Part shown: positions 5,801-62,901 of the stretch, piece by piece
Layout: each line of letters opens with the position of its first letter
Numbering within the stretch: the first letter of the stretch is position 1
Assembly (NCBI GenBank): GCA_027053075.1
Contig: JALUEE010000078.1
Coordinates: 25,189 to 89,188 of the forward strand
DNA length: 64,000 nt
Direction: 5' to 3'
Source of the DNA: a candidate division WOR-3 bacterium
Lineage (GTDB): Bacteria; Hydrothermota; Hydrothermia; B15-G9; WFZT01
Notes under the pieces: generated by a model
Databases searched by the model: none
The model's input: the letters and a program-made list of their open reading frames with translations, nothing else
Told to the model about the DNA's origin: nothing
Translations under genes and position numbers: made by a program

Positions 5801-6119
5801 ATATCCAGTTAATTCCATCTGAGCTGTTATAGATGTAAGCAGGATTCTGTCCCGGTAATCTCTTCGATCCAATCCATAGTCTATTGTAATTGTTACCAAT
5901 CCTGAATCTGCCAATCTTTATTATAGCAACTCGGTCAGCAGACACAATATAAAAATTGTTTCCTCTGTATCTCACAACCCCAATATCAGGAACAGTATCC
6001 CGGCTCAGGATAAGGCGGAAGTTGTTAACATAAAAACTGATCGTATCACCTACTTCTTTAGCGGGAAGAGTTGATATGAATAAAAGTGAAAGCACTAATA
6101 AAATCTTCTTAAAGCGCAT
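2802..6119 (-). CDS. Large secreted protein (1105 aa) with BNR-like beta-propeller region and T9SS C-terminal sorting domain
   Basis: Signal peptide; SDYGNSW / SPDNGNSW Asp-box motifs; C-terminal ...GVYFIRLKTSMRNVVKKIVFLKY CTD-like tail. Confidence 0.6.
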   Translation of the reverse strand: MRFKKILLVLSLLFISTLPAKEVGDTISFYVNNFRLILSRDTVPDIGVVRYRGNNFYIVSADRVAIIKIGRFRIGNNYNRLWIGSKRLPGQNPAYIYNSSDGINWIWERGLSGMDLKIDRYIRPTGDTVTVADMDVFDFNYVRDSLPAIKAIIFAATSDGLFSTLFTSSPGPWKLEAFADTTVYGIAVNPMTVSFGGRGQVLYAATSYGVYRVETQGFNSPSTDSLLGTLTDTVWTICGDPSDSSRLLIGAVSGIYRWSSNDWEHLNVNFGKVYNIRYIAGSFYVAADSGLFKTSDYGNSWNTVGTFDYPVTDVVIDNGHMYVSLLGGGVMESPDNGNSWNDFSNGLETLRLLGSKNVYTIFNDSTGLYLGCDEGVYHYNETLAKWENVSNGVGSLMTDRTVSTVASVLENDSVSVFDSIISYLHIDPNVLVDVDNDPRVYIILTRLVQTSNATDPTVIPVFGYFDPRDEDLFDNYSTKREVLVVDLSKFISNGSINRSKLQAFMAYLYGRYAVWSVDMQANPAELTGVAAWASYRCGFDFADGVKGGIDYLGNKKYLNSPLLDYTHQWLNSPVAREIDRERMLLWFEYMSQIYGDTVVTKDVLHGGLRGYRSLNEVIKKYSYGKDSLLTFAPKWYLALTFNRTLYLQDSSGSIVDTAFGYAPPMDSIHVKSAAISDIPGSGEQKSSQVMAPSGFAVWRDAIDTITGERFNAKDGDQDYLKIFMVCGTDSVAKVVPLDSLGRFAMTVNDDSCSSFKYLIANLNVSKTIPYYLTEDTTAPQIVGTYALQNPGNPRMIQMYVVGYDKVGSRFYGLMTDVKTPNPIVTFSTLADSSPETRAYNMKLLSSGDSLFNYFVPVLLDLRGDVEVSVRAQDLAGNDASISPDTISVQSISEQGGVYTALGGQVIIEAPANAFPGVTTVLIDKIDKDLAELTYHGASTGMSDVYLIGNNRITSAREITIKIRPMSREAQKVYAYRNGEWEPIKTYYDEESGFYIFRTRKLGAFQLRSGTPERFGFSFAVVNGPIIYSNKNIRLNLSLDRADKVDISLYNTAGRMVKRLVSGKLQAGIHTFDVNTSDIHLTSGVYFIRLKTSMRNVVKKIVFLKY

Positions 6120-12200: not shown

Positions 12201-12435
12201 CGATGTAGGAACACGTCAGGGTATACGTACCAGGAGGCACATTTAAAATAACATAATAGCCATCCTGGTCAGAAGATGCTCCCATTCTCGTCCCCTCTAT
12301 TATTATGTTAGCAGCCGGAAGTGGTTCACCAGTATGCTTGTCGGTGACTCTACCGACAATTTTACCAGTAGTTCCGGCTGTGAGGGACGAAAATGCAAAT
12401 AGGAGCGCCAGCACCCACACATTCTTAAGCCTCAT
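9220..12435 (-). CDS. TonB-dependent receptor with N-terminal carboxypeptidase-regulatory-like domain
   Basis: Signal peptide; TGKIVGRVTD...GYYVILNVPPGTYTL (CarbopepD_reg-like); plug motif VDIVKSSQLAELPVTNVAQVV...GGLHVRGGRPDEVVYVIDGV; 1071 aa; C-terminal ...LKGF terminal Phe. Confidence 0.8.
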   Translation of the reverse strand: MRLKNVWVLALLFAFSSLTAGTTGKIVGRVTDKHTGEPLPAANIIIEGTRMGASSDQDGYYVILNVPPGTYTLTCSYIGYKTMKVENVTVDVDRTTEVNFKLEPATLVTKEVVAVAKEPIIKKDLTASVDIVKSSQLAELPVTNVAQVVSQQAGVIARGGLHVRGGRPDEVVYVIDGVEIRDPYSNNTFANIPLLSIEETSISKGGFDVDQGTVSSGTINIVTKEGGPKYGFTLETVTSDFSFLGDKIYGFLDRNWGDEYYDFLTGKNLDFNSPVGRHHSRDYITQFSFGGPINPRNRSGAKFFISGQYQTNKGRFPVSPDPKFWNVRKNFQWKITYPLASWKFFTSGFWAKAHTRGYSPYWRLALDHTSYNDDNQLQFIFGINKIFSSRTYWELRLGYFRRKLESNVMEDVDRDGVDDFADRDKDGFVEVDLDYFKKLVIDTFRTHGRIDSVHTHWEWINIDSLYSYVSPNGDTVHPEINWSAGYVEIPYYWWDTKVQALYPSIGSGPKWWPEAEEMFIVDPIFRDTVDTIFSVLNTEGWGQRSNVDLKVLVVEAMDDSGNTYVDTVLQVSNDFYEFPFRWPLKGHEFTDSIVTVIDTLLKVGGQYLPGMNTWQRSQWYYGNSSYLTFTTKLTSQVTKHHEILAGMEYKRINITRYGADYASGGNVYLTLLNPHLTSRPGDPYTFINWFNDHPAVPWVFAAYLRDKIEMEGMIAKVGFRIDYYNSGGYAISDSNDPFVSDSLWHTIRMMKNPVKVGSKWYISPRLGVSHPISDRDVLHFTYGHYLQIPPFYQILSNYVFSGAFPIVGNANIEPEKTISYELGLKHAINNQMVVDVTAFYKDILKWSRLKQFSYGIAGANYSTYVNEDWGTVRGIEFSFSKRPGGMVLPFLTLSIDYTLQYAYGSFSSPFNAYDWMWRGYPLPHKESPLDWDQRHSLVANFGVVFPKNKSLANIRYLDNFSLMFQFTYGSGYPYTPPIRTPRDAVEKINSARLPSHMQLNMKFIKNFEIGKAKFRFYVDVLNVTNRKDLNRFENVDWYVQFHMPEGEVKNPAVYYPRRTTRLGLEFKLKGF

Positions 12436-16499: not shown

Positions 16500-16906
16500 A
16501 AAAAGGCAAAAACGTATCCTTCAAAGCCCATTCCAGCTATCACAGCATCCGCAGCCCTCGCAGTGATAAGGGAATGACGAATCTCCTCTCTTTTAAACAC
16601 GTTTGATATGTGAACCTCAACGATCTTGCCATCAAATGCCCTTAGCGCGTCAAGAATGGCAATACTGTAATGAGAATAAGCACCTGGATTTATGATAATT
16701 CCATCCACTGAGCCAATGCATTGATGAATAAAATCCACAATCTCACCCTCGCTATTGGACTGGAAAAACTTAAATTCAACATTCTTCCCTTCAGAAGCTT
16801 CTATAAGCATCTTCTCAAGCTCTTCAAGGGTGCCAGAGCCGTATATCTCAGGCTCCCTTCTGCCAAGAAGGTTGAGATTTGGCCCATTGATCACAGCTAT
16901 CTTCAT
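16475..16906 (-). CDS. aroQ: 3-dehydroquinate dehydratase, type II
   Basis: MKIAVINGPNLNLLGRREPEIYG...IIINPGAYSHYSIAILDAL... strongly matches type II DHQase. Confidence 0.85.
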   Translation of the reverse strand: MKIAVINGPNLNLLGRREPEIYGSGTLEELEKMLIEASEGKNVEFKFFQSNSEGEIVDFIHQCIGSVDGIIINPGAYSHYSIAILDALRAFDGKIVEVHISNVFKREEIRHSLITARAADAVIAGMGFEGYVFAFFYLLSLFE

Positions 16907-18546
16907 AATAAACCTCCTTTCAACCTGATAATTTCATCTGGCTCCATAGGGTTTATGATAACATCACCGGGTTTGCGCGGTATTACAAAGTCAATCTTAC
17001 CACGAGAGGCCTTTTTGTCCTGTACGATTTTTTCAAGAATCAACCTCTCATCCACGCGCTCAGCATCAGGCAACTTCCGCAGTAATCCAAATTTACCGAG
17101 CAACTTCTTTGTTCGCTCAAGGAGCCCAGTCTCAGTAATTCCAAGTCCTATCCCAATTTCAATTGCCTTAACAAGACCAATGGCAACAGCCTCGCCATGA
17201 CTTATTCCCAGTATCACCTCATAAGCATGACCAAGTGTATGCCCAAGATTGAGTAACTTCCTCTTACCAGTGGACTCCCTGAAGTCTTCCTCCACGATCC
17301 CGAGTTTTACTTTCGCAGTTCTCTTTATCACCTCAGTGAGTGTCTGAAGATTACGCCTTAGCAACTTATCTACATTTGCCTCAAGGAATTTGAAAAATGC
17401 ATCCCCGTGATCGAAAGAATTCCCCCCACCTGACTCCTCCCCCCACGGACGAAGTCCGTGGGGGGAGGTCGGGAGGGGGGCACCATCTTCTAATTTATTT
17501 GAAAACGTAGTCTCACCAATTATTGCAGACTTCACAATCTCCGCAAATCCCTGGCGAAAATCCTTTCCATCAAGCGACAAAAGAGCTAAAGGATCAATCA
17601 AAATCAAATCCGGGTGATAGAATGTCCCAATGACGTTCTTTATCCCCCTGAAATTCAAAGCATTTTTCCCACCAAGACCTGCATCAACCTGGGCAAGAAG
17701 GGTTGTGGGTGCATTAATAAACCTGACACCTCTTTTGAAAGTAGATGCTGCAAATCCCACCACATCTGAGGCTGCACCTCCTCCTATAGACACCACAGTG
17801 GTTCCCCTTGTTGCCCTTGAATTCAGCAGGAATTCATAGATTCTCGTAAGAGTTTTTAGGCTCTTTGCCCTATCACCATCAGGTAACACAAAAACACTCT
17901 CTGGCAGAAACTCACCAAATAATCTGTAAGCTCGCCTCTGGGCAAAATATCTGACATCCCCCTTTGTGAAATTCCCCAAATCCTTTAAAATCCCGGGCCC
18001 GAGTAAAATTTTCTCTATGCCATCCAGTTCTTCTTTGATGTCCCAATCAATAAGATAGAGTATACTCTGAGCCACGGTCCATGGATTAGCAACCGCATCC
18101 ACAGTATTACCCACCCTTTCGTATATTTCCCGTCTTTCATTCAGAATTTTTCTCAGGTTATCCTCAATCCCCCCTTTCAAAAGAGGCCTCACATCACTTT
18201 TTCCCCTGCACCTTCTAACAAGCTCTTTAAGTGGAACCTCAAGATACACTCCCAGTGACTGCTCTCCAATCAACTTGAGATTTTCCGAATCTGTCACCAC
18301 TCCCCCACCGGTGGCAATCACCGTATTCTCAAGACGCATTGCGGACTGCAGAACCTCTTTCTCCAACCTTCTGAAATAGTCCTCACCGTAAGCTCTAAAA
18401 ATTTCAGGGATTTTAAGGCCAGAGCGCTGTTCGATAAGCCTATCCGTGTCAACAAAATCCCATCCGAGTGCCGCGGCAAGCCTCTTTCCAACAGTGGTCT
18501 TGCCACTGCACATCATACCTGTGAGAACGATTCTTCTGGGGATCAT
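16903..18546 (-). CDS. aroKB: Bifunctional shikimate kinase / 3-dehydroquinate synthase (AroK-AroB fusion) carrying an in-frame hairpin-repeat insertion
   Basis: N-terminus LTGMMCSGKTTVGKRLA (shikimate kinase P-loop); C-terminal DHQ synthase motifs (GGGAASDVVGFAASTF...NAPTTLLAQVDAGLGGKNALNF; LNLGHTLGHAYE); 20-aa insert encoded by repeat at 17422..17481. Confidence 0.8.
   Translation of the reverse strand: MIPRRIVLTGMMCSGKTTVGKRLAAALGWDFVDTDRLIEQRSGLKIPEIFRAYGEDYFRRLEKEVLQSAMRLENTVIATGGGVVTDSENLKLIGEQSLGVYLEVPLKELVRRCRGKSDVRPLLKGGIEDNLRKILNERREIYERVGNTVDAVANPWTVAQSILYLIDWDIKEELDGIEKILLGPGILKDLGNFTKGDVRYFAQRRAYRLFGEFLPESVFVLPDGDRAKSLKTLTRIYEFLLNSRATRGTTVVSIGGGAASDVVGFAASTFKRGVRFINAPTTLLAQVDAGLGGKNALNFRGIKNVIGTFYHPDLILIDPLALLSLDGKDFRQGFAEIVKSAIIGETTFSNKLEDGAPLPTSPHGLRPWGEESGGGNSFDHGDAFFKFLEANVDKLLRRNLQTLTEVIKRTAKVKLGIVEEDFRESTGKRKLLNLGHTLGHAYEVILGISHGEAVAIGLVKAIEIGIGLGITETGLLERTKKLLGKFGLLRKLPDAERVDERLILEKIVQDKKASRGKIDFVIPRKPGDVIINPMEPDEIIRLKGGLL
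17422..17481. repeat. Composite GC-rich hairpin repeat (CCCCCCACCTGACTCC-TCCCCCCACGGAC-GAAG-TCCGTGGGGGGA-GGTCGGGAGGGGGG) inside aroKB coding sequence, in frame
   Basis: Near-identical architecture to copies at 21167..21226 and 26105..26164; translated as APLPTSPHGLRPWGEESGGG in a predicted surface loop. Confidence 0.7.
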
Positions 18547-21634: not shown

Positions 21635-23695
21635 TTGAAAAAACTGCAAACATTGTCCTATAATACTTCCAGCATGGTAAATCTACTTTTTGGCATACAC
21701 TGCCATCAGCCGGTGGGTAACTTCGATTACGTTATCAAACACGCCTTCGAGAAATCCTACAAACCTTTCCTCGAGACACTTTACAACTATCCGGATTTCA
21801 AGTTTTCCATCCATTACACAGGCCCACTTTTAGAATGGATTGAGCAAAATGAGCCTGAATTCTTTGAAATCATCCGCGAAATGGTCAGCAGAAAGCAGGT
21901 TGAAATATTTGTCAGCGGATTCTATGAGCCTGTACTTGCTTCTATTCCGGAAAATGACCGCGAGGCACAGATTCTCATAGCCCGTGAATACGTCATTAGA
22001 AAGTTTCATTACATGCCCGATGGCCTATGGCTCACCGAACGGGTCTGGGACCCATCAATCGTGAAATCTCTTATTAAATCTGGCATTAACTACGTTCTCG
22101 TCGATGACTTCCACTTCCTATCAGCAGGGTTTGACAAAGCTAACCTCCACGGCTATTACCTCACAGAATCTGAAGGGCAAACCCTCGGGATATTCCCGAT
22201 TGATGAGAAACTCCGCTATCTAACCCCATTTAGACCGGTTGATGAAACCCTAAAATACCTGAAAGAGCTCCATGAAAGCCAGAAAGAAGCTGCCATCATC
22301 TTTGACGATGGGGAAAAATTTGGTATCTGGCCAGGGACCCACGACTGGGTTTACAAAAAAGGATGGCTCAAAAAATTCATAGAAGGCATACTATCCCTCG
22401 AATTTGTCCAGACTTCAACATACAGGGAATTTTTTGAATCGCATAAACCCTTAGGAAGAGCCTACCTTCCAACAGCTTCCTATTTTGAGATGAGCGAATG
22501 GTCCCTGATGCCTGAAAAAGCTCTTAAATTCGTGGAATTTGTTAATAGGCTCAAATCCGAAGGCATATTCGAAGAAAACAAAATTTTTGTCCGTGGGGGA
22601 ATCTGGCAAAATTTCCTCGTAAAATACAGCGAAGCCAACAGAATGCACAAAAAGATGGTCTATATTTCCGGAGAGCTCAAGGACACTCCCGTGGAGGAGA
22701 AAATCCCCCTCTATAGGGCTCAATGTAACGACGCCTACTGGCACGGAATCTTTGGTGGACTTTATCTTCCGCATCTTAGACATGCGAACTATTCAAATCT
22801 TCTAAAAGCTGAGCGAAACCTTCCTGCACCAATCTTTGAGGAAATTGACATTGATTGTGACGGATTTTATGAAATTTACGCGAGGACAAAATTTATCGTC
22901 GCGCAGATAAAGCCATCCTACGGTGGTGCCCTAACAGAGTTTTCCTCCCTCAAACAGGCTCTGAACTTTCAGGACACCCTCATGAGAAGATTTGAGCACT
23001 ACCACAAGGGGCTTAAAGAGACACACCATAGTGAGAGTGGAGTGGCCTCCATCCACGAGATGCCAAAAAAGGTTGACAGAAAGAAACTGATTTACGATTG
23101 GTCGGAGAAATTTTCGTTACTTGACCATTTTATAGAGGACTCTCCGGAGGCAAAGAGCCTTGCCCGCGTTGAATTTAAAGAATTGGGAGACTTTGTTAAC
23201 CAGCCATACGAGTACTTTATGGAGAAAAACGGGGTGAAGCTTCACCGCTCTGGTGGTGTATTTGATGGGGGAAAACGCCCAATCGAGATTGAAAAGGAAA
23301 TAACCATACCGCTCGAGAGACCTGAGGTTATTGCAAAATACAGAATCCCTGGAAGGTCTGGCAATGCAGTTTTTGCCGTGGAATTTAATTTCTCCATGCC
23401 TTCTGCCGATTCAAAAGAATCCCGTATCATCCTGGATGGCAAAATCATTGGCAATTTCCACGACATACTTGATGCGAGGGGACACGAACTCATTTTAGAC
23501 GACACCGTTTTCAACACAGCCGTAAAGCTCAGAAGTGAAAGGGAAACAGTTTTCAGGATATTCCCGGTTTATACTGTATCACAATCTGAGAGTGGACTTG
23601 ATTACACGTATCAGGAGACGGGGATTTTTATGTTATTTGGTCCGGTTGAAGGGATATTTGAAAATACCATAACTATTTCGATACCTGGAGGATGA
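21635..23695 (+). CDS. Glycoside hydrolase family 57 (alpha-amylase / 4-alpha-glucanotransferase type)
   Basis: N-terminal LLFGIHCHQPVGNF...; GH57 conserved blocks (FSIHYTGPLLEW, VSGFYEPVLASIP, TERVWDPS); alternative start at 21674. Confidence 0.8.
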   Translation: MKKLQTLSYNTSSMVNLLFGIHCHQPVGNFDYVIKHAFEKSYKPFLETLYNYPDFKFSIHYTGPLLEWIEQNEPEFFEIIREMVSRKQVEIFVSGFYEPVLASIPENDREAQILIAREYVIRKFHYMPDGLWLTERVWDPSIVKSLIKSGINYVLVDDFHFLSAGFDKANLHGYYLTESEGQTLGIFPIDEKLRYLTPFRPVDETLKYLKELHESQKEAAIIFDDGEKFGIWPGTHDWVYKKGWLKKFIEGILSLEFVQTSTYREFFESHKPLGRAYLPTASYFEMSEWSLMPEKALKFVEFVNRLKSEGIFEENKIFVRGGIWQNFLVKYSEANRMHKKMVYISGELKDTPVEEKIPLYRAQCNDAYWHGIFGGLYLPHLRHANYSNLLKAERNLPAPIFEEIDIDCDGFYEIYARTKFIVAQIKPSYGGALTEFSSLKQALNFQDTLMRRFEHYHKGLKETHHSESGVASIHEMPKKVDRKKLIYDWSEKFSLLDHFIEDSPEAKSLARVEFKELGDFVNQPYEYFMEKNGVKLHRSGGVFDGGKRPIEIEKEITIPLERPEVIAKYRIPGRSGNAVFAVEFNFSMPSADSKESRIILDGKIIGNFHDILDARGHELILDDTVFNTAVKLRSERETVFRIFPVYTVSQSESGLDYTYQETGIFMLFGPVEGIFENTITISIPGG

Positions 23696-23696
23696 A

Positions 23697-24731
23697 ATGC
23701 CAGAGTTAAGATATGACCCAATACGCCAGAGATGGACAATAATCTCTATTGAACGAGGCAGGAGACCTCACGAGTATGTTACCGAAAAGGAAGAGGTGAA
23801 GAAAGTAGACTCCTGCCCATTTGATTATGGGAACGAGCAGAGAACTCCGCCTGAGATATATGCCATTTCTGACCAACCGAGGCAGCCAAATACACCTGGC
23901 TGGAAGGTCAGAGTGGTGCCCAATAAGTATCCGGCACTGAGAATCGAGGGAGAGTTAAAAAGGGAAGGAGTTGGCCTCTTTGATGTGGTCTCTGGAATCG
24001 GAGCCCATGAAGTGATCATCGAAACACCTGACCACAACCGTGAAATGAGCGACAGAACCCCTGAGGAGATAGCGCTGGTTTTGAAAGCCTACAAAGAGAG
24101 ACTCCTTGATCTGAGAAAGGATACACGATTCAGGTACATCCTGGTCTTTAAAAATCATGGAAAGGATGCAGGGGCATCTCTCTCGCATCCGCATTCACAG
24201 TTAATAGCGACGCCGATTTTCCCGCCCGTGGTTAAAGCAGAGCTCGTAAGCGCACGCGAGTATTATTTGAGGAAAGAACGCTGTATTTTCTGCGACATCA
24301 TAAAACAGGAGCTCACATTGAGGGACAGAATCGTATGGGAAAGCGACAAATATGTTTTATGGGAACCATTTGCCTCTTCCTTCCCCTTTGAAACCTGGCT
24401 ATTCCCCAAATACCACTCTCACGATTTTGCACTCCTTCCGGATGAGGAACTCTACGACCTCGCAGTGGCATTAAAGGAGATGCTCGTAAGGATAAAGGCC
24501 TTATTAAACGATCCTCCGTACAACATGGTGCTTCACACTGCTCCTCCACCCCATCCGAGGCCGGGGCATGCGGATTACTGGGAAACCCTTGAATTTGACT
24601 TTCATTGGCATATTGAATTGATTCCAAGAATCACAAAAATCGCGGGGTTTGAATGGGGATCAGGTCTTCACATAAATCCAACTCCACCAGAAGAGGCAGC
24701 AAAATATTTGAGAGAAGTAGAGCTAATTTAA
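23697..24731 (+). CDS. GalT-like HIT-family nucleotidyltransferase (galactose-1-phosphate uridylyltransferase / ADP-glucose phosphorylase family)
   Basis: RYDPIRQRWTIIS..., CPFDYGNEQRTPPEIY, NKYPAL, HEVIIETPDH, GASLSHPHSQLIA (HxHxQ-like HIT motif). Confidence 0.75.
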   Translation: MPELRYDPIRQRWTIISIERGRRPHEYVTEKEEVKKVDSCPFDYGNEQRTPPEIYAISDQPRQPNTPGWKVRVVPNKYPALRIEGELKREGVGLFDVVSGIGAHEVIIETPDHNREMSDRTPEEIALVLKAYKERLLDLRKDTRFRYILVFKNHGKDAGASLSHPHSQLIATPIFPPVVKAELVSAREYYLRKERCIFCDIIKQELTLRDRIVWESDKYVLWEPFASSFPFETWLFPKYHSHDFALLPDEELYDLAVALKEMLVRIKALLNDPPYNMVLHTAPPPHPRPGHADYWETLEFDFHWHIELIPRITKIAGFEWGSGLHINPTPPEEAAKYLREVELI

Positions 24732-39415: not shown

Positions 39416-39554
39416 GGGATAAAAAATACACTTAAACCTATTTCTCCACCACCCACAACAGATACGAGCTAAAATTTTATCAACCATATCTTGACAGATT
39501 TTATCAATCAGATTACTTATAAAACATAATAAGACTATTAGGAGGTTTTTAGAT

Positions 39555-40247
39555 ATGAGCGTTCTGGAACTTAGAGAATTACAGGCATTGAACACCCTTG
39601 TCTTCGAGACCCTTGGACAGCCAGAGAAGGAGAGAGAATTCAAATTCAAATCTCTCAAGAAATGGGGTCTGGATTTGATTTTGGGTAAAAAGGGAGGGAA
39701 AACCACGTATTTTGTCGCTGAGTATGGGAAAAGGAAGTTGGGTGATATTTATGAAGAAAGCGGTGTTAAATACGAAGTTGACGAGATCCTTTACGAAATG
39801 CCCAAAAATAAGAGGTTATTTGCCCACATTGAAATGGAGGACGGTAGAGCCTACCTTGTTGGTCAGCTCAGAGAAGGAGATGAAAACATCGAAATCCTTA
39901 GGTTACCCGCTGCATCACTACTTCTTGCCTATTTCAAAAAGCACAGGTTGCACCACTTGATCGAGGCAATGAGAAATGTTGGAACAGCTACGGAGTTGGT
40001 TAAGCAAAGAGGTCAGGAGGGAAAGCCATATCCATTCAGCAAATTGCCCAATGTAGCAAGAAGATTCCTGAGAGAAGCCAAGAAAATCGAGCGCGAAGCA
40101 GGATTTGGAAGAGTCGCACTTGCATACTACGGTGAAAACAAGGACGGAGATGCAAGATTCAGAGTCTCATGGTTACTCCCAACCATTGCTCTCTTTGAAA
40201 TCGATATCGCGGAGAAGGCAGACAAAATCCTTGGAGCTTTCAAGTAA
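39555..40247 (+). CDS. Hypothetical protein (230 aa), first gene of the prefoldin-containing operon
   Basis: AGGAGG SD; no motif I can assign. Confidence 0.45.
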
Positions 40248-40248
40248 G

Positions 40249-40968
40249 ATGGAACTTCTTTTCTGGACACCTGTTTTATACTCACGTAAGGGTTTCCCGA
40301 GGGACGAGGAGGGCAACCCTTTTATTGAAGGAAAAGTCATTGAAGAGTCCATTACTTCGGCCCTCATTTTTTATCACATAAAAAAGGACAAGCTCCTCGA
40401 AAATCAGATTAAAAAGCTCCTCATGGAGCTTTCACCTCGTGATGTGATGCCCATGGTGAAGAAATTGATATTTGAAAAATACAATCTGCACTCTCTTTTG
40501 ACTTTACCCGATAGAATTCCTCTAATTGGTGGTAAAATCTACAAAACTCCCGTTGATGTAATGGACCTTCAGACGTGGGACGAGGTGGATTCATTTATAG
40601 GAGAGGTCTTCGAGGGTATCCTCAGAATACCCGTCGAATCTGAAAAGCTGGAGCTTATCATGGCAGCCGGACATTCATACACAGAAGCCCTGCTCAAAAT
40701 GGAGATGGAGCTTTTAGGTGATCATCCACTGGTAGAGACCTTCTACATTCCCATGATCAATGAGGTCAAGAAATGGGAAATCCCACTCAGGACAGGGTGG
40801 TGGACCGTGGAAAAATTTAAGGGAAATCTTCTCTTCTTCTGGAGGGTTAAGGAAATAAGAGAAAGATTCTTGCGCGAATTTAAGCTGGATATAAGGCCAC
40901 AGAAAATCCTCTTTCTCCCACGGGAGGGGGTGACGGCAGGATGGGCAGAACTTAAAAAGGAGGTGTAA
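40249..40968 (+). CDS. Hypothetical protein (239 aa), translationally coupled to the upstream gene
   Basis: ATG 1 nt after upstream TAA; no recognisable motif. Confidence 0.45.
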   Translation: MELLFWTPVLYSRKGFPRDEEGNPFIEGKVIEESITSALIFYHIKKDKLLENQIKKLLMELSPRDVMPMVKKLIFEKYNLHSLLTLPDRIPLIGGKIYKTPVDVMDLQTWDEVDSFIGEVFEGILRIPVESEKLELIMAAGHSYTEALLKMEMELLGDHPLVETFYIPMINEVKKWEIPLRTGWWTVEKFKGNLLFFWRVKEIRERFLREFKLDIRPQKILFLPREGVTAGWAELKKEV

Positions 40969-40971
40969 GTC

Positions 40972-41430
40972 ATGGCAGCAAAGAAAGAAGTAAAAAAGGA
41001 CGACAAAAAAATGGCTGAACTCAATAGGGAGCTGAGAAGCTATATAAACCAGATAGAAACACTCAGGGTAAATATTACAAACATTGATGCCCTGATTTCG
41101 GAGTACAGGACAACCATAACAACCCTTCAGAACCTGAAAGACCTTGGTAAAGGTAAAGAAGTGCTCCTGCCTGTAGGAAGGATTGCACAGGTTAGCGCGA
41201 AATTAGAGGCAGTTGATAAAGTAGTGGTAAGCATTGGAAGCAGCATATCTGTCGAGCTCACATTCGACGAGGCCGTCAAGCAGATCGAGAAGGAAATCTC
41301 AGCTCTAATACTGCTCAGACAGGCACTTGAGAAGACGATGGTAGAGCTCTATGGGAAAGTGGAAGAATTAACCCAGAAGATAAGAGAACATGGAAGAGAA
41401 GAAGCAACAGCAGAAGAAGGAAAGAAATAA
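40972..41430 (+). CDS. pfdA: Prefoldin alpha subunit-like protein (archaeal PfdA/GimC-alpha type)
   Basis: AAAAAGGAGG SD; coiled-coil N and C helices flanking GKGKEVLLPVGRIAQVSAKLEAVDKVVVSIGSSISVELTFDEAVKQIEKEI, matching the PfdA double beta-hairpin consensus EiLVPiGxGxfvxgxixdxxkvlVxlGsGyxvExsxdEAixxLek. Confidence 0.6.
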   Translation: MAAKKEVKKDDKKMAELNRELRSYINQIETLRVNITNIDALISEYRTTITTLQNLKDLGKGKEVLLPVGRIAQVSAKLEAVDKVVVSIGSSISVELTFDEAVKQIEKEISALILLRQALEKTMVELYGKVEELTQKIREHGREEATAEEGKK

Positions 41431-41557
41431 GTGGATAGAGGAATTTATCTCAAAGTTGCCAGAAGGCAGAAAAATTTACTACCGATTTGGGAATCTTATG
41501 GTAGAGGTGTCTCGCAAGGAGGCACTGGAACTCATTAAAAAGGAGGAAAAGAAATGA
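41390..41557 (+). CDS. Possible 55-aa mini prefoldin-beta-like ORF (not in supplied ORF track), overlapping pfdA 3' end and the next gene start
   Basis: MEEKKQQQKKERNKWIEEFISKLPEGRKIYYRFGNLMVEVSRKEALELIKKEEKK; hairpin segment IYYRFGNLMVEVSRKEALELIKK resembles prefoldin beta IYKxVGxLLVKVxKEEAxxxLKEK; ATGA overlap with downstream gene. Confidence 0.3.
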   Translation: MEEKKQQQKKERNKWIEEFISKLPEGRKIYYRFGNLMVEVSRKEALELIKKEEKK

Positions 41558-42027
41558 GGAAACCAGGAACTCTCATAGTGATTGTTACAATTGTCGCGCT
41601 GGCTCTCGGATGGGTGATCGGTGGATTTTTCACCAGCACCTCGGTGGCAAAAGCAATTGCATCCATCCCTGCGTCTCCGATAGTTGTGGATGCCAAGTAC
41701 AAAAGAGACCAGCATACAATTGAATATTCAATGCTAAATCCAGGAGGGATGCCCCTCACCATTGTGCAGGAATCTTTTGTCTTCACACCCGGTAAAGAGA
41801 CTAAAGAGAAGAGCTACATCGTGTCCAACGTACCTGTCAACGTAAAACTGCTTCCCGGGGTGATTACAAAAGTTGAACTTAAGCTCAAACCCGGAACCGA
41901 GAAACTCCAGCTCGGAGACGTGGTACTTGCTACCTTTGCCTACCATCATCCTCTTTCAGAGGACCTTTATACGGTGGTTCACTCGTTTACCATGGAAACA
42001 GCAGACACCACTGGAGGTAAGAAGTAA
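41554..42027 (+). CDS. Membrane-anchored hypothetical protein (single N-terminal TM, beta-rich ectodomain)
   Basis: AAAGGAGG SD; TM LIVIVTIVALALGWVIGGFF. Confidence 0.45.
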   Translation: MRKPGTLIVIVTIVALALGWVIGGFFTSTSVAKAIASIPASPIVVDAKYKRDQHTIEYSMLNPGGMPLTIVQESFVFTPGKETKEKSYIVSNVPVNVKLLPGVITKVELKLKPGTEKLQLGDVVLATFAYHHPLSEDLYTVVHSFTMETADTTGGKK

Positions 42028-42551
42028 TGAAGGGTGAAAGAGTCCTGTGGTGGATATTCTTTGTAGTATTCGTTGCCTTCCTGATTTTCGGTACTCTCGT
42101 GTTCACTGCTACGATCATAGCAAATCCTGTTGCAGCAACATTCTTTCTGGGTCTAACAGGTTTCTGGCTCTTTGCCAATAGACTCATATTCGGTTTCGCA
42201 GGAATCACAAACACCGCAAATCAGGTTGCAAAAGGAGAGGAAGTTGACAGGAAAAAATTGGCCTCGTACTCAAAGGAACCTGAAGAAAGGACAAGGGAGC
42301 TCAGTCTGGTTTCGCTTCTGATCCTCTGGAGAAATGCTCTTGAACCTTACAGGTACGCTTACTACTTCGCATTCTTTATAGTGTTCATCATCGCAATGCT
42401 TTTCCAGCTAAATATAATCCAGTCATACGTAGGAGTGATAGCGAAGTCCATCATGTTCGGTGCATCCGTGCCAACGCTGATAGTGTGGGTACTTGACATA
42501 TTTTCACGTGCTTACTTAAACGGAGCGATTAAGGCTTCAATGGGGGCCTAA
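42027..42551 (+). CDS. Polytopic membrane hypothetical protein (4-5 TM)
   Basis: ATGA overlap with upstream gene; multiple hydrophobic helices. Confidence 0.45.
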   Translation: MKGERVLWWIFFVVFVAFLIFGTLVFTATIIANPVAATFFLGLTGFWLFANRLIFGFAGITNTANQVAKGEEVDRKKLASYSKEPEERTRELSLVSLLILWRNALEPYRYAYYFAFFIVFIIAMLFQLNIIQSYVGVIAKSIMFGASVPTLIVWVLDIFSRAYLNGAIKASMGA

Positions 42552-42694: not shown

Positions 42695-42722
42695 GAGGGG
42701 CTGCCCGAAGGGCAGCCCCTCA
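42695..42722. terminator. Bidirectional hairpin GAGGGGCTGCCC-GAA-GGGCAGCCCCTC between convergent genes
   Basis: Perfect 12-bp arms, T-run upstream on plus strand, located between the 3' ends of 42027..42551(+) and 42728..45472(-). Confidence 0.5.
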
Positions 42723-49133: not shown

Positions 49134-51068
49134 CTACCTGATGAGATACACACCCAATTGAACTTTGAAGACTTCCTTATCCTGCTTCAAATCAAAGCCC
49201 ATACCTTCATCCTCGTAACGGCGATTAATAGCGAGGTAAATCCCTGAAAAAGCGGAGGGTTCGTAAGCCAGGATACCATTTAGCTGAAACTTTTTCTTAT
49301 TCAGCATCCTGTCGTCGGTGTAGTTGAGATAAGGTTTTAAGAGGACTTTGTAAGGTAGAGGGATTTCACCATAAACCTGGGCAACACGCTTGTCATCGTA
49401 ATTTGACTTGAAATAGTCGAGTTTGAAACCAAGATTAACCCCGTAAAGGCTAACCGCAAATCCACCTTCAACCTTTTTCAGATCACCGCCGAGATAGCGG
49501 CCTTTATAAAACTCAACGTACATGTTTTTCCAGGCAGAGATCTGATAGGCCAGTGCGAGCATGAGAAGGTTTACTCTGGTCTCAGGATAGTATCCTCTCA
49601 AATACCCCAAATCCTGTGTAATATAGCCAATACCGCCAAGGTAGGGGAGTTTTCCACCGGAGAAGTAAAGCATCCCGCGATTTCTTACAAGAGTGTTGTC
49701 ATAAAGGTCACGTGTTACTGAATAATTTGTGTGTACACCGAAATAGCGATTATTTTCACTGAATTTTTTGTAAACCGCAGCGACAAAGAACGACTTTACC
49801 CCATCGAAATAGAGGTTAAGCATGTTCAAAGGGGAAATGAATGCGCTGTCGATATAACTGCCCTCGAGTCTGAAAAGAAAGCCCTGAATTGGATTCCTAT
49901 TTACCGCAAAGTGTATTAGATTGGAAGATTGGTCAAGTCTCCTTGAGAACTGAGCGCTGGCCGTGAGACTGTATTTTCTCAATGCATAAAAGATATCTCC
50001 TGAGACCACGTTGTAACCTATAGAATTTGCATCAAGAAAGGTACCAAAACTGAGGTTTTTTGAAGGAGAATATCTGATTCTTGTAAAAGAGACTGTCCCG
50101 AGCGAATCGTCATCAACGTACCATATCCCGAAAGCACTCATGTCGCTCACGGAGTAAAACTTCAGTCCATAATTCGGATAGGCGAGGTTTCTTGTTCTGA
50201 TCAGACCGATTGGAAGATTAAGAATTGACTTGCCTTCCACAAAAAACGGTCTTTTCTCTGGATAGTTTACCGGGAGACGTGATATATCGACCTTTATAAT
50301 GTCTGCCTCTACCTCAGAGAAGTCTGGCTTGTAGGTAAAATCCAGCAGGTCTCCTGAGCCTTTTTTGAATCTTGTAGTGAAGCCACTGCTAAATTGATAG
50401 GTTTTATCAGCAAATGGATTCCTTTCAATCCTTGTTGATGGAACAAAGTAAAGATTATAGTCACGGGTTTTCTTGATATAATTGAAGTCAAGCTCAAAGC
50501 TCAATGTGTTCCTTGGAGAAAGTTCCTTTGTGGGATAAAGTAGCTGAATGTGCGCGTTTTTTGAGATTACCCGCATCACCTGAAGGCCCCAAGGGGATTT
50601 TGTATAGGATAAGTTTTTGAAAGGTACAAAAACGAAGGCGTCCCAGTAGTCGGATTTCCTGTGAGTTTTTACCTTGATATTTGCATCCCATTCCGTGATT
50701 CCGTTACTGGTGTAAATTTTGTCAAGGATGGTGCCAAGAGGGTTAACACCTATGTAATAGGCGTTTCGTCTATCTGAAGTCGTAGAGACGAAGAAATAAA
50801 CCGCGTCCTCTGCCTGTTTGAAAAGGGCATCGGAATCCCTTTTGCGGGAACTTGCATTTATACCCTCTTTCTGCCACATCCTGACATAGAAGACCAGCCC
50901 ATCTTTTGTGTAACCTAAATAAATCTGGCTCGAATCTGACGGCATGCTGTCCACTTTAGGGATAACTTCAATAAGTTTCAGATGGTCCTTTACAGTTAAG
51001 ATTTGCTGGGGAACCTCGAGTTTATGGAAGGTAAGATTGAACGACAGAAGAAACATTAACCAAAACAT
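49134..51068 (-). CDS. Hypothetical outer-membrane protein, DUF5916-like (N-terminal carbohydrate-binding-like domain + beta-barrel); paralog of 61039..62901
   Basis: Signal peptide; shared motif YPEKRPFF with the 61039 paralog; alternating amphipathic beta strands; C-terminal aromatic/hydrophobic end. Confidence 0.4.
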   Translation of the reverse strand: MFWLMFLLSFNLTFHKLEVPQQILTVKDHLKLIEVIPKVDSMPSDSSQIYLGYTKDGLVFYVRMWQKEGINASSRKRDSDALFKQAEDAVYFFVSTTSDRRNAYYIGVNPLGTILDKIYTSNGITEWDANIKVKTHRKSDYWDAFVFVPFKNLSYTKSPWGLQVMRVISKNAHIQLLYPTKELSPRNTLSFELDFNYIKKTRDYNLYFVPSTRIERNPFADKTYQFSSGFTTRFKKGSGDLLDFTYKPDFSEVEADIIKVDISRLPVNYPEKRPFFVEGKSILNLPIGLIRTRNLAYPNYGLKFYSVSDMSAFGIWYVDDDSLGTVSFTRIRYSPSKNLSFGTFLDANSIGYNVVSGDIFYALRKYSLTASAQFSRRLDQSSNLIHFAVNRNPIQGFLFRLEGSYIDSAFISPLNMLNLYFDGVKSFFVAAVYKKFSENNRYFGVHTNYSVTRDLYDNTLVRNRGMLYFSGGKLPYLGGIGYITQDLGYLRGYYPETRVNLLMLALAYQISAWKNMYVEFYKGRYLGGDLKKVEGGFAVSLYGVNLGFKLDYFKSNYDDKRVAQVYGEIPLPYKVLLKPYLNYTDDRMLNKKKFQLNGILAYEPSAFSGIYLAINRRYEDEGMGFDLKQDKEVFKVQLGVYLIR

Positions 51069-51298: not shown

Positions 51299-52255
51299 CT
51301 ATAAATCAGCGAGGTGTTTTCTAAGTTTTTCTGCGGCTGTTTCAGGCGAAACGGTGTTAATGTAATATCCGGTTCCTACCTCAAAGCCAGCAAGCCCTAC
51401 AAGTCTCGGTAAAATCTCTATATGCCAGTGAAAGTCATGGTCTTCAATTGAGTGAATTATGAGATTGTAAGAAAATCCGTTGAGTTCCATGCGGTAAGAT
51501 TTGAGAAGCTTGAGTAGAAATTTGGCGAGGTATTTGAGGCGTTCATCACTTGCCTCTCCGAAGCTCGACTCGTGCTCCGATGGGACAATCCAGGATTCGT
51601 AGGAAAATCTTGAGCCAAAGGGAGCTATTGCCACAAATCCAGATTCGTTCATTATCAGGCGTTCTTTGGTTCTCACTTCAATATCCAGCACTCTGCATAG
51701 GGCTTTCCTCCTCTTCATGGCCTCCAATTCCCTTTTTATATGCTCGGGAATAGCCCTAAGAGCGAGTATCTGGGTGTGCGGATGCGGCAGAGATGCCCCT
51801 GCATATTTCCCCCAATTGCGAAAGATGTGCACATATCTGATACCGGGTTTGCCGATAAGCGCCCGGTATCGCTCTCTATAAACCCTTAAAATTTCAAAAA
51901 GATGCTCCTCGCTTTGATCTGCGAGGTCTTTAAAGTGGTCTGGAGTTTCGATTACGACCTCATGATATCCTGTAGCGAGCTCTCCCCTGTAAAACTTGTG
52001 CCTGAAGAACTTCTCATTGTGTTCCTTTGAAACCACTGCAGGGAATTTGTTTGGCACCACCCTGACAATCCACTTGCCGTTTCTTTCAACTCTCATAATT
52101 TCCGGCGGTGTCCTTTCTTCTCGTCCGGGGCAGAAGGGGCATGTGTCCACTGTGTGAGTATATTCATCTGGAGAAAACGCTATCGGTCTGAAACCGCGCT
52201 CAGGAGAGATTATAACTGTAGAACCTGTGACAGGGTCGTGTCTGATTTCAGGCAT
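51299..52255 (-). CDS. GalT-like HIT-family nucleotidyltransferase (second paralog)
   Basis: RHDPVTGSTVIIS, CPFCPGREERTPPEI, NKFPAV, HEVVIETPDH, GASLPHPHTQILA. Confidence 0.7.
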   Translation of the reverse strand: MPEIRHDPVTGSTVIISPERGFRPIAFSPDEYTHTVDTCPFCPGREERTPPEIMRVERNGKWIVRVVPNKFPAVVSKEHNEKFFRHKFYRGELATGYHEVVIETPDHFKDLADQSEEHLFEILRVYRERYRALIGKPGIRYVHIFRNWGKYAGASLPHPHTQILALRAIPEHIKRELEAMKRRKALCRVLDIEVRTKERLIMNESGFVAIAPFGSRFSYESWIVPSEHESSFGEASDERLKYLAKFLLKLLKSYRMELNGFSYNLIIHSIEDHDFHWHIEILPRLVGLAGFEVGTGYYINTVSPETAAEKLRKHLADL

Positions 52256-60248: not shown

Positions 60249-61037
60249 ATGAGGAAGTATCTAAAAATATTCAAATTACAACTGGTAAATCAAATTGTAT
60301 CCTACAGTATTTTTAAGGGCGACGCTATTCTGCTTATAGTATCTGATACTTTTGGGCTGATTTTTTCGGTGATATTTTTCAAAGCACTTTACAACAACAT
60401 AGATTCTATTGGTAGCTGGAACTATGAATCAACACTTTTATTGGTAGGTATTGCAAATTTTGCGGATTCTTTTTATAGGTTATTATTTGAGAAAAATGTG
60501 CGAAGGATTTCTGCTTTTGTAAGAAAAGGTACATTGGATTACGCGCTAATTAAGCCTATTGATGTACAATTTTTTCTTAGTATAGGAAGATTCAAATTCC
60601 AGACTTTATCTTCCCTGCTTTTCTCGATTTTGGTTATCCTTCACGCTATGAAATTATTACAACTTACAATTAATGTTTTTAACGTAATTGTATTTATCAT
60701 TCTTTTGATAACAGGTGTGTCTTTGCGTTATATATTCAGTTTATATTCTTCTATCATTTCTTTTTACACTACCAGAGTTTCTGCTTTCTATTCTTTACAA
60801 ATGGAGATTTTCAAATACGCTGAATATCCCTTTGATGTGTTTAGAGGATTAATTGAAAGGATATTTTTCACGTTTATATTTCCAATTGTAATAATTGCCA
60901 ATGCCCCGGCTATAGTTATTATACAAAATAGAAACTATTGGGTGATTTTAAGCGTCTTTATCAGTGTAGTACACTTCTATTTATCTCGAATTTTGCTTTT
61001 TGCTTCAATAAATAAATACCAGAGTGCAGGAGGTTGA
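60249..61037 (+). CDS. ABC-2 family transporter permease (second paralogous subunit)
   Basis: 6 predicted TM; motif VRKGTLDYALIKPIDVQFF paralleling upstream permease. Confidence 0.6.
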   Translation: MRKYLKIFKLQLVNQIVSYSIFKGDAILLIVSDTFGLIFSVIFFKALYNNIDSIGSWNYESTLLLVGIANFADSFYRLLFEKNVRRISAFVRKGTLDYALIKPIDVQFFLSIGRFKFQTLSSLLFSILVILHAMKLLQLTINVFNVIVFIILLITGVSLRYIFSLYSSIISFYTTRVSAFYSLQMEIFKYAEYPFDVFRGLIERIFFTFIFPIVIIANAPAIVIIQNRNYWVILSVFISVVHFYLSRILLFASINKYQSAGG

Positions 61038-61038
61038 T

Positions 61039-62901
61039 ATGTTTGTGTTGTTGATCATTGCGCTAAGCTTTAACAATTTTCACCGTTTCTTCCCGAATAG
61101 TGGGGAAATGATGGAAAACCGGACATTTGCGACTGTGGAACTGGTTAATGACACACTCGTGATTAATGCAAAATGCCACTCTAAGTATGGAATTTACACG
61201 GAATCTCTTGACAGGGATGAAATAAAGCCCGGTGAAGATTTCTTCGGTATTGTAATCACACAGGACAGGAATACGGGTTATTTCTTCCTGATAAATGCAA
61301 ATGGTATAAAAAGCGACGGAGTAATCGTCCATAAAAGCACAAAAAGAAAAGCCTGGGATTATGTCTGGAATGTGAGCTCAAAGAGGTTTGATGATTCTTT
61401 ATGGGTTGCAAATGTCAGGATTCCTCTTGATCGACTAAACCTTGAATACAAAGACAGTCTCATCCTGTACGTCAACCTCGTCAGGAGCGCAAAGCTCGGA
61501 GGCGTAGGCAGGTATGAGTCAGGGACTTATGTGCCCATTGTGGGCTCAAACTTCTATGATCTCACTTTTACTCAGAGGGTTGCTCTCCCGGTTGAGAAGA
61601 GAAAAGCAGGGACAAAGTTATTTATTGAGCCCTATGTGGCGGTTTACCGTGACAGTGGAGGTGTTTTCTTTAAAGAAGGGGAGGACATAACTTTAAAGAA
61701 TCAGACTGGAGAGCTTGCGATAACAGTGAATCCGGACTACGCAACAGTGGAAAGTGATGTGGAACGATTTAATCTCGACAAATTACAGATGCTCTACTAT
61801 CCGGAAAAGCGTCCCTTTTTCATGCATGGTTTTGAGCTATGGAACCTGCCCTTTATGGTACTTTACACGAGGAGCCTGACGGAGATAGATGCAGGGGTAA
61901 AGGCAAATGTTAAGAGAGAAAATATGAGCTTCAATGCATTCCTTATTGAGGAAGGGGACACACTGTCAGGCTATTTTAGAAGGAAACGTCTCACCGGTGG
62001 AGTCAGGGGATTATACTCAACCGAATACGGGGACTTTGGGCTCTTTTATCTAAGTAGCAGGGACAGTTTTGAAGCAAAAGGTCTTGATGCAATGTTTTAC
62101 CTTCCCTTTCAGCTCAGAGTAAATATGCAATATACACTGGACCGTTCGTCAAAGAGTGATTTCTTTTTACACATTTACCGGTTTGTTGAATCCGGAGTGG
62201 ATGTGGAAGCCGGGTTGGAGAGACTTGATAGTGTGAGAATAAATACAGCTTACATACCATATCCCTTATACACTCGCTCCGCATGGCTTTATCTCACCTA
62301 CAATTTTTCAAGGGATAGCAAAATCTTACCCAATGGCTACTTAAGTATAGGTGGGACACATGGAGAATACCTAAACGGAAAACTCTATGAAAATAGTGGT
62401 TCAATAGTGGCCTCAGCTGGAATTCTCAGTAATCTACGGGTGGTATATAACCTTATACCCTAGAGAAGGAACGCTGGCAATACGATATATGATAACTTGT
62501 TGCATTACTTTGAGATAGACTACCAGCCCCTGACACATCACTACATTGAAATTGAGACACAGTTTGGTCGTTACTTTGGAGGGGTCCAAAAATACTACTC
62601 TGCAGAATATTCGTACAAAGGTGAAAAGCTCTTGCTCGCATCTGGATACGGCTACGACAGCGAGCCTTTTTACACGCAGAAGCGCATATATTTGAAGGCA
62701 AAATACAATCTTACCAATGACTTAAGGGCAAGACTCTTTGTGCAGCATTCTGAGATTTCAAAAAGGAATGAGGTAAACTTTTTGACGGAATACCGCATAA
62801 AGCCTGGAACTTTCCTTTATTTTGTGATAAACAGGACCGAAATAAATGGCTCCCCGCAGGTTAATTTCATGGTTAAGTTTAAAAGTTATGTGGGGATATA
62901 G
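61039..62901 (+). pseudogene. DUF5916-like outer-membrane protein paralog interrupted by a single in-frame TAG (62461..62463); both halves in the same frame
   Basis: AGGAGG SD before ATG 61039; ORFs 61024..62463 and 62497..62901 share a frame; combined length about 620 aa, matching the 644-aa paralog at 49134..51068; shared YPEKRPFF motif. Confidence 0.4.

Follow-up and report, generated by a model that had tools for sequence, protein, structure and literature searches.

A gamma-type prefoldin and a truncated beta-prefoldin encoded in a six-gene operon of a candidate division WOR-3 bacterium

The canonical prefoldin is an alpha2-beta4 "jellyfish" hexamer (PDB 1FXK and 2ZDI) that passes its clients to a chaperonin, and according to a 2021 review conventional bacteria have no prefoldins (PMC8567396). 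Methanocaldococcus jannaschii encodes gamma-prefoldin (gammaPFD; MJ0648, Q58064, PDB 6VY1), described in 2024 as a unique chaperone found in that archaeon. Under lethal heat shock gammaPFD is induced 26-fold; its beta-sheet domains join it into filaments, and it reportedly interacts with neither alpha nor beta subunits (PMC11117396). Both its holdase activity and its heat induction have been demonstrated (PMC11117396, PMC4895442), and the length of its filaments has been controlled by blocking one interface with TERM, an engineered X2-mutant cap (PMC4895442). Here we report on a 64,000-nucleotide stretch of DNA (the window) from a candidate division WOR-3 bacterium (contig JALUEE010000078.1), in which a relative of gammaPFD is encoded in an operon of six genes. 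These are, in order, open reading frame (ORF) 1 (UPF0128 family), ORF2 (a RAMP protein), ORF3 (the prefoldin), a very short gene that we call mini-beta, and ORF4 and ORF5 (two membrane proteins).

The gamma-type prefoldin and its putative truncated beta partner

A sequence-only reading of the window had taken the ORF3 product for an archaeal-type prefoldin alpha subunit (PfdA) of a kind rare in bacteria, quoting a peptide that is indeed present in the protein. That ORF3 is a true alpha-class subunit was borne out by matches above the cut-offs to Pfam PF02996 (E 1.8e-22; 80 bits, cut-off 23.2) and to TIGR00293 "prefoldin subunit alpha" (95 bits, cut-off 53.9). The remaining Pfam and NCBIfam matches were coiled-coil noise with E values of at least 1.8e-4, leaving prefoldin the best by 18 orders of magnitude. 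The assignment also survived comparison with the rival families that the same reading had named, as no Skp/OmpH or DivIVA model matched ORF3 in Pfam or NCBIfam at E ≤ 1, and these two identities were rejected. Skp/OmpH has an analogous jellyfish holdase architecture with coiled-coil "tentacles" (PMC8567396) but is not homologous to ORF3, and Skp is periplasmic, whereas no N-terminal hydrophobic segment was seen on reading the ORF3 sequence by eye. The predicted layout of ORF3 is that of the alpha class, with a coiled-coil helix at either end and two beta-hairpins between them.

The more specific identification with archaeal PfdA had to be revised. Upon comparison with all PDB sequences by HMMER, the top match was 6VY1_A (E 1.8e-32), which aligned over 136 residues without a gap (ORF3 residues 14-149), whereas the canonical alpha subunits 1FXK_C and 2ZDI_C gave E values of 1.2e-8 and 5.5e-8. 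The 1FXK_C alignment covered ORF3 residues 14-117, and it and the 6VY1_A alignment were gap-free or nearly so and spanned both beta-hairpins. Among 1.84 billion cluster representatives, four reached E ≤ 2e-25 against ORF3, followed by a sharp fall to the canonical alpha subunits; the named clusters nearest to ORF3 were those of Desulfurobacteriaceae, Aquifex sp. and M. jannaschii Q58064/Methanocaldococcus FS406-22. In a neighbour-joining tree the gamma-type clade consisted of bacteria, Methanocaldococcus and two further sequences (92% bootstrap), with bacterial lineages outnumbering archaeal ones. Within it the window prefoldin grouped with those of five close loci (92%) and this group joined the Desulfurobacteriaceae (100%), while an all-bacterial prefoldin clade received a bootstrap value of only 61%. 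By these comparisons ORF3 is a relative of gammaPFD (the M. jannaschii "alpha 2" type) rather than a generic PfdA. Its bacterial relatives are already named "prefoldin subunit alpha" in NCBI and UniRef, and hence the bare presence of a bacterial prefoldin alpha gene is already known at the annotation level.

MJ0648 and ORF3 are about 48-49% identical (MAFFT) and share the arrangement of two beta-hairpins between two coiled-coil helices, and in both cases a mini-beta ORF directly follows the gene. The two differ in that ORF3 carries a Lys-rich N-terminal extension, unlike MJ0648, and in that MJ0648 is archaeal and its locus lacks the UPF0128, Csm5-like RAMP and two membrane proteins of the bacterial operon. 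Filaments and heat induction are known for MJ0648; the 48-49% identity suggests that both would also apply to ORF3.

The sequence-only reading had spoken of a six-gene operon while listing five ORFs; the sixth is mini-beta, which public gene calls on identical contigs include. Its 55-residue product is MEEKKQQQKKERNKWIEEFISKLPEGRKIYYRFGNLMVEVSRKEALELIKKEEKK. We collected 17 close genome loci by a contig pattern scan, which was too specific for Aquificaceae and Methanococcales, and more distant loci by exact-protein look-ups. A mini-beta homologue directly follows the prefoldin gene in 17 of the 17 loci and in Persephonella. All 18 copies matched Pfam PF01920 (Prefoldin_2), the best with E 1e-9 and the window copy with 27.5 bits, just below the gathering score of 27.6. 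The matches covered profile positions 22-72 of 106, a stretch that runs from the last part of the N-helix through the beta-hairpin into the first part of the C-helix. The mini-beta family profile matched the prefoldin beta chains 3AEI_A and 2ZDI_A at E 1e-5, and the hairpin motif LPEGRKIYYRFGNLMVEVSKEEA aligned with the Pyrococcus horikoshii beta sequence LPDDAQIYKTVGTLIVKTTKEKA. With 49-66 residues versus the roughly 110-120 of full beta subunits, the mini-beta proteins lack the coiled-coil arms; they do not have the canonical beta layout of one beta-hairpin between two long coiled-coil helices and are truncated derivatives of it. A pfdB homologue, which the sequence-only reading had suggested looking for elsewhere in the genome, therefore exists but sits inside the operon and keeps only the beta-hairpin. 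No second prefoldin-like ORF and no full-length beta gene was found within the 64-kb window.

Short ORFs that overlap the ends of Lys/Glu-rich coding sequences can arise by chance, and the window copy falls just under the Pfam cut-off; both would fit the view that the 55-residue ORF is a chance reading frame in a row of unrelated, merely adjacent genes. We consider this explanation highly improbable because of synteny: more than 20 loci of several phyla and an archaeon have conserved mini-beta together with its hairpin motif, always beside the prefoldin gene or in one operon with it, and the gene set is kept despite shuffled gene order and changing flanks. The ratio of nonsynonymous to synonymous substitution (omega) of mini-beta, where estimable, is about 0.19.

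The M. jannaschii mini-beta encoded after MJ0648 is MKKKLNNEFQEVIDFLKSLPEGRRVYIEMSGIWIEVTKEEAINYLKSKINEKEA. In the genomic sequence (L77117.1, positions 5374/5425-5589 of the extracted locus L024) an ORF of 54-71 codons overlaps the 3' end of MJ0648 and encodes the beta-hairpin LPEGRRVYIEMSGIWIEVTKEEA. We found no mention of this downstream ORF in the gammaPFD literature searched, the coverage of which excluded PMC2203346 and PMC8034818. Similar pairs occur at greater distance. In the genome of bacterium 3DAC, labelled Dictyoglomota (CP046447.1, L032 4001-4615), a prefoldin alpha-class gene is followed by a 55-residue mini-beta (hidden Markov model E 2.4e-5), and in another bacterium (L033 2945-3775) by a 116-residue form without the N-helix (E 3.2e-9). 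From these sequences the pairing of an alpha with a truncated beta subunit looks general for bacterial prefoldins. The Aquifex sp. beta-like gene (L025 7871-8170) shares an operon with the prefoldin gene, lies four genes away from it and encodes 99 residues with a long N-terminal helix and only a stub of the C-terminal helix; this form is an intermediate between a full beta subunit and the 50-residue mini-beta.

A canonical alpha2-beta4 hexamer that was simply acquired from archaea and passes clients to a chaperonin would also account for an alpha-class gene with a beta-class gene beside it. Both classes of the hexamer have homologues here (alpha at E 1e-8, the beta hairpin at E 1e-5), Pfam and TIGRFAM assign ORF3 to prefoldin alpha, and 1FXK_C and 2ZDI_C are detectable relatives. 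However, ORF3 belongs to the divergent gamma clade and resembles gammaPFD, which forms filaments independently of beta and according to the report cited above binds neither alpha nor beta, far more than it does the canonical alpha subunits, and its beta partner lacks the client-binding coiled-coil arms, with no full-length beta gene in the window to supply them. Moreover, bacteria carry group I rather than group II chaperonins, and the host is not known to have a group II chaperonin as a partner. We judge the canonical hexamer to be an unlikely explanation.

The UPF0128 and RAMP genes

The sequence-only reading had recognised no family for the two proteins encoded upstream of the prefoldin, and both can now be placed. 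ORF1 matched UPF0128 (PF03673, TIGR00703) over its full length with E 1e-97 (scores of 326 and 330 bits, for which the cut-offs are 21 and 155). No gene of the module is more strongly conserved: ORF1 is 87-90% identical across loci in which ORF2 is only about 50% identical, and is about 60% identical to Methanocaldococcus proteins. Family members also occur in Persephonella, Methylomarinovum, Nitratiruptor and metagenome-assembled genomes (MAGs) labelled Thermodesulfobacteriota. No solved structural relative of UPF0128 was found: the best Foldseek match was to PUR-alpha repeats at E 0.04, too weak to use, and the family profile gave nothing significant against PDB sequences. The literature searched made no mention of UPF0128, TIGR00703, MJ1463 or MJ0648.

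Csm5 is a Cas7-group RAMP protein that caps type III-A CRISPR effector complexes (TIGR01899; PDB 6MUR_F, 7UZZ_E). ORF2 itself had no Pfam or NCBIfam match, and a direct test against TIGR01899 and PF03787 gave none at E ≤ 10. Its structure model (pLDDT 92.9) matched Csm5 and has a predicted Csm5-type RAMP fold, which is RRM-based. Matches at the level of the family agree, since 13 of 24 members matched TIGR01899 weakly (best E 3e-5) and single members matched Csx10, Csx7, Cmr6 and the Pfam RAMPs. The best PDB sequence matches of the family profile, which were sub-threshold, were five Csm5 sequences aligned on the motif G.P(F/Y)(I/L)PG. ORF2 is thus a divergent Csm5-type RAMP, and in the loci compared it is always paired with UPF0128.

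Csm5 has about 300-400 residues and is encoded in a type III cas operon beside a CRISPR array, whereas ORF2 has 239 residues and neither of these surroundings. In the 64-kb window we found no tandem CRISPR-like repeats and no 18-mers in three or more copies, no Cas domains in the 20 largest ORFs, no cas10 or csm2-4 among the ORFs scanned, and no structured RNA, Rfam RNA or tRNA. A CRISPR-Cas locus nearby was rejected given the absence of repeats and of Cas domains in those 20 ORFs. Hence ORF2 is homologous to Csm5 but by context is not a Cas protein. Two further candidates were tried and dismissed. The only PADLOC match among the module proteins was that of ORF3 to LmuB, coiled-coil noise at E ≥ 4e-4, which disposed of a known anti-phage system, and viral contigs of IMG/VR held no relatives of UPF0128 or the prefoldin, which disposed of a virus-borne module.

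The RAMP fold nevertheless invites the view that the operon is a CRISPR-derived RNA-guided or defence module, in which the RAMP and UPF0128 would be a degenerate effector complex, the membrane proteins its effectors and the prefoldin a scaffold. Exapted, array-less Cas derivatives are known, among them the haloarchaeal HRAMP system, a STAND-associated I-E derivative and type IV systems (PMC8730458, PMC3150331). Like ORF2, these are RAMP-family proteins conserved outside functional CRISPR-Cas immunity loci; they differ in keeping several Cas subunits (Cas5 plus Cas7, with or without Cas8/Cas6) and nucleases, whereas here a single Csm5-like RAMP stands in a chaperone/membrane operon. As for the two transmembrane proteins, their likeness to abortive-infection effectors does not go beyond general form. 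Together with the missing repeats, Cas domains and Rfam RNA, the PADLOC noise and the absence of the module from viral contigs, two properties speak against a defence role: UPF0128 is 87-90% identical and synteny is stable throughout a bacterial family, whereas defence islands evolve fast and are patchy, and the wider neighbourhoods (below) hold stress rather than defence genes. We therefore regard a defence module as quite unlikely.

Operon layout, gene order and neighbourhoods

The five ORFs listed by the sequence-only reading all lie on the + strand as given, and their tight spacing and the translational coupling of the prefoldin gene to its neighbours were confirmed at the junctions (Table 1). 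ORF1 and ORF2 are separated by one nucleotide (TAAgATG) and ORF2 and ORF3 by three (GGAGGtgTAAgtcATG), with a GGAGG ribosome-binding site inside the 3' end of ORF2 followed by TAA, three bases and the ORF3 ATG. The first 41 nt of mini-beta overlap the 3' end of ORF3 in a different frame, and its TGA overlaps the ORF4 ATG (ATGA, 4 nt). ORF4 and ORF5 share one base (42027). ORF2 is mechanically listed as 40105-40968 from a TTG codon, but the internal ATG at 40249 gives the N-terminus MELL.WTP that is common to 23 of 23 homologues. The GC content of the module (0.44) is not distinct from that of the rest of the window.

Table 1. Positions of the operon genes and other features in the 64-kb window
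Feature	Description	Position	Strand	Basis
Promoter-like region	Upstream of ORF1	39491..39530	+	Promoter scan, comparison of related loci
ORF1	230 aa, UPF0128/TIGR00703 family, cytoplasmic	39555..40247	+	
ORF2	239 aa, divergent compact Csm5-family RAMP (predicted Cas7-group RRM fold), outside any CRISPR-cas locus	40249..40968	+	
ORF3	152 aa, prefoldin alpha-class subunit, gamma-prefoldin clade	40972..41430	+	Pfam, TIGRFAM, PDB, tree
Mini-beta (sixth gene)	55 aa, beta-hairpin and short helix stubs without coiled-coil arms	41390..41557	+	
ORF4	157 aa, N-terminal transmembrane anchor and conserved domain of ~120 aa	41554..42027	+	Hydropathy, alignment
ORF5	174 aa, membrane protein, ~4 transmembrane segments, charged central loop	42027..42551	+	Hydropathy, alignment
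Putative termination zone	Structured intergenic region between ORF5 and the convergent protease gene	42552..42727		Fold
T9SS/TonB receptor ORFs	Three ORFs	212-1849, 2802-6119, 9220-12435	-	Pfam

That both downstream genes encode membrane proteins, as the sequence-only reading had proposed, agrees with hydropathy. ORF4 has one N-terminal hydrophobic segment, and ORF5 has about four with a charged central loop, as read from hydropathy output rather than from a dedicated topology prediction. In the domain after the ORF4 anchor, H54, H132, H143, D122 and D137 are invariant in 10 homologues, within the motif Y.HPLS.DLY.V.H.F, which suggests a metal- or ligand-binding site. Homologues occur in Aquifex sp. 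(ORF4, E 8.6e-51; ORF5, E 8.4e-31), and neither protein has a Pfam, NCBIfam or PDB sequence relative, also when family profiles were compared with PDB sequences.

Upstream of ORF1 we found a TTGACA box at 39491-39496, a scan-found site TTATCA-18-CATAAT at 39501-39530 and an AGGAGG ribosome-binding site at 39540-39545. By eye, the TTGACA box recurs at equal distance from the UPF0128 start in 13 related loci. In the Desulfurobacteriaceae loci (L009-L013 and L017) a palindrome, TTTAG-N5-CTAAA, also noted by eye, lies between conserved TTGACA and TAAATT boxes about 40-60 nt before the UPF0128 ATG and looks like an operator. The group of loci to which the window belongs instead has a direct repeat, ATTTTATCAA, found twice around the TTGACA box (window 39473-39507, by eye).

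The region between ORF5 and the convergent protease gene folds with -62 kcal/mol (z = -3.6 versus shuffled sequences) and contains a 7-bp hairpin just 3' of the ORF5 stop and a GC hairpin of 10-12 bp near 42695-42721. It was not flagged by a simple terminator scan because it has no T-run, and is probably a termination zone. The convergent ORF of 1016 codons carries PD40, Tricorn_C1, PDZ and Peptidase_S41 domains in Pfam and is tricorn-like, as the sequence-only reading had said. The linkage is incidental, however: uvrC and the tricorn-like protease flank the operon in common only with the 97%-identical locus L001, and a functional link of the module to the protease was rejected.

The order ORF1-ORF2-prefoldin-mini-beta-ORF4-ORF5 is kept in 13 of the 17 genome loci with differing flanks, and the gene set is conserved across Aquificota and MAGs labelled WOR-3 and Thermodesulfobacteriota. 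Other arrangements are shuffled or partial. Aquifex sp. has the six-gene set in the order prefoldin, ORF4, ORF5, UPF0128, RAMP and the beta-like gene, then DUF505. In Persephonella the order is UPF0128, RAMP, prefoldin and mini-beta, then a YfdX gene that replaces the membrane pair. Loci L003 and L008 have only prefoldin, mini-beta, ORF4 and ORF5, and in L005 UPF0128 is missing at the locus. Nitratiruptor has only UPF0128 and RAMP, between BON and HtrA genes; M. jannaschii has only prefoldin and mini-beta; and in Methanocaldococcus sp. 16A UPF0128 has a locus of its own with no prefoldin gene nearby. Because of these variant arrangements, we regard the cluster as composed of three sub-modules, namely prefoldin plus mini-beta, ORF4 plus ORF5, and UPF0128 plus RAMP, which occur together or separately. 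For the module genes dN was 0.06-0.48 with synonymous sites saturated, and omega was 0.03-0.19 where computable; judged by these values the genes are under purifying selection.

Elsewhere UPF0128 adjoins DUF308 (HdeD-like) and YfdX genes in Methylomarinovum and a Thermodesulfobacteriota-like MAG, DUF505 in an archaeon, and trehalose-phosphate synthase and TreT genes; AhpC is also among its neighbours. These recurring neighbours are stress-protection genes. Neighbourhoods of the stress type are found at L019 5418-7646, L029 3102-5693, L020 8122-9030, L030 5001-7389, L031 5001-9161 and L022 5461-9641. All named carriers belong to genera known as hydrothermal or thermophilic.

With regard to the host, the three closest MAG loci with a phylum label are from candidate division WOR-3. 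Two large window proteins carry C-terminal sorting domains of the type IX secretion system (T9SS; Por_Secre_tail) and one TonB-dependent receptor has an N-terminal CarboxypepD_reg domain, which we take to be features of the Fibrobacteres-Chlorobi-Bacteroidetes (FCB) group and not of Aquificota; they agree with the WOR-3 label of those MAGs. Because the prefoldin groups with Desulfurobacteriaceae (100% bootstrap) while the host is FCB/WOR-3-like, the whole operon was probably acquired laterally by a vent-dwelling FCB/WOR-3-like lineage from Desulfurobacteriaceae-like Aquificota. The horizontal acquisition proposed by the sequence-only reading is upheld insofar as transfer between domains is involved, but an archaeal gene acquired by a bacterium is too simple a picture, since the clade is mostly bacterial and the closest relatives are Desulfurobacteriaceae.

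Other observations on the window concern genes outside the operon. The segment 58001-62000 has a GC content of 0.34-0.37, versus about 0.43-0.45 elsewhere, with positive GC skew, and is a possible foreign island. No Pfam family matches the ORF at 61024-62463 (479 codons), and none matches the ORFs at 7115-9205 (-, 696 codons) and 49134-51068 (-, 644 codons) at E ≤ 1e-5. A 547-codon ORF at 16903-18546 (-) encodes shikimate kinase fused with 3-dehydroquinate synthase. Two GalT-like paralogues (galactose-1-phosphate uridylyltransferase/DUF4921/DUF4931) are found at 23697-24731 (+) and 51299-52255 (-), one of which adjoins a GH57 amylase/4-alpha-glucanotransferase gene at 21635-23695.

A proposed role in thermophile stress protection

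Given these assignments, we lean, with an assurance only a little better than even, towards a thermophile stress and proteostasis module whose core would be a gamma-prefoldin polymer partnered by mini-beta. The service most likely rendered by such a module is proteostasis under heat or stress in hydrothermal thermophiles. By homology to MJ0648, the two beta-hairpins (X1 and X2) of the ORF3 two-helix coiled coil would drive polymerisation into a brush-like holdase. Mini-beta could dock on the beta-hairpin interfaces and thereby cap, limit, terminate or nucleate assembly, and coupled translation of the overlapping genes would make its dosage depend on how much prefoldin is produced. In this capacity mini-beta would be a natural counterpart of TERM, a laboratory-made full-length gammaPFD that, with its X2 sheet mutated, stops filaments from growing and determines their length (PMC4895442). 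Both would offer one competent beta-sheet interface, which makes TERM a working analogue for capping; unlike TERM, mini-beta is natural, separately encoded and a beta-class hairpin, and its binding to the prefoldin is putative. The capping role specifically is a tentative proposal that we hold to have rather less than an even chance of being correct.

The membrane pair ORF4/ORF5 may tether the chaperone to the membrane or be its client. A membrane tether also leads to a different explanation, that the prefoldin forms a cytoskeleton-like filament, anchored by a putative ORF4/ORF5 tether, that stabilises or shapes the envelope at high temperature and is not a chaperone. The self-standing set of prefoldin, mini-beta, ORF4 and ORF5 in L003 and L008 and the contiguity of prefoldin, ORF4 and ORF5 in Aquifex fit such a filament, as does the report that M. 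jannaschii filaments fill the cell and in some cases follow elongated cell shapes (PMC11117396). However, the M. jannaschii locus with gammaPFD and mini-beta has neither ORF4 nor ORF5, and the demonstrated holdase activity and heat induction of gammaPFD point to chaperoning. A purely structural filament therefore seems to us rather unlikely.

Within the stress and proteostasis module, the UPF0128/RAMP pair would be a co-selected stress-protection unit, possibly one that binds nucleic acid. The two genes are very strongly constrained. The predicted RAMP fold suggests RNA binding by ORF2, and the gene context suggests a role of the pair in stress protection.

Several points weigh against the stress and proteostasis module. 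The promoter upstream of ORF1 is sigma-70-like in appearance; no CIRCE heat-shock operator was found there when up to three mismatches were allowed, and no heat-shock regulatory element was recognised. The UPF0128 gene of M. jannaschii is not beside that of gammaPFD, and therefore the three sub-units need not work as one machine. The link of the module to stress is drawn from gene neighbourhood only, and filament formation by ORF3 and its binding of mini-beta are predictions. Finally, the module leaves the presence of a Csm5-type RAMP in a chaperone operon without explanation, and UPF0128 has no informative fold match.

A more specific and more doubtful possibility is that a Csm5-family RAMP and UPF0128 were exapted into a non-CRISPR machine that works with a mini-beta-capped gamma-prefoldin polymer; we think this could be so but would not expect it. 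If this exaptation and capping scheme were true, the view of gammaPFD as a homopolymer unique to one archaeon would be an incomplete picture, and gammaPFD would belong to a mainly bacterial thermophily module that moves laterally.

Three aspects are undescribed in the literature searched (with the same limits of coverage as above): the gamma-type identity and mainly bacterial distribution of these prefoldins; the mini-beta partner, including that of M. jannaschii; and the linkage of the prefoldin to a stand-alone Csm5-family RAMP, UPF0128 and two membrane proteins. They bear on several fields. In the distribution of prefoldins, a gamma-type clade that is mostly bacterial stands against reviews that state their absence from bacteria (PMC8567396). 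In nanomaterials, where gammaPFD is a widely engineered scaffold, designed caps have been needed to set its length, and a natural hairpin-only partner would be both a native regulator and a tool. For the evolution of CRISPR systems, a Csm5-family RAMP fixed in a chaperone/membrane operon is a clean candidate for Cas exaptation outside defence. UPF0128 gains from the locus its first functional context, that of stress and proteostasis genes. The spread of the module over Aquificota, Methanocaldococcus and MAGs labelled WOR-3 and Thermodesulfobacteriota, with parts of it in Campylobacterota, fits a laterally shared adaptation to hydrothermal heat.

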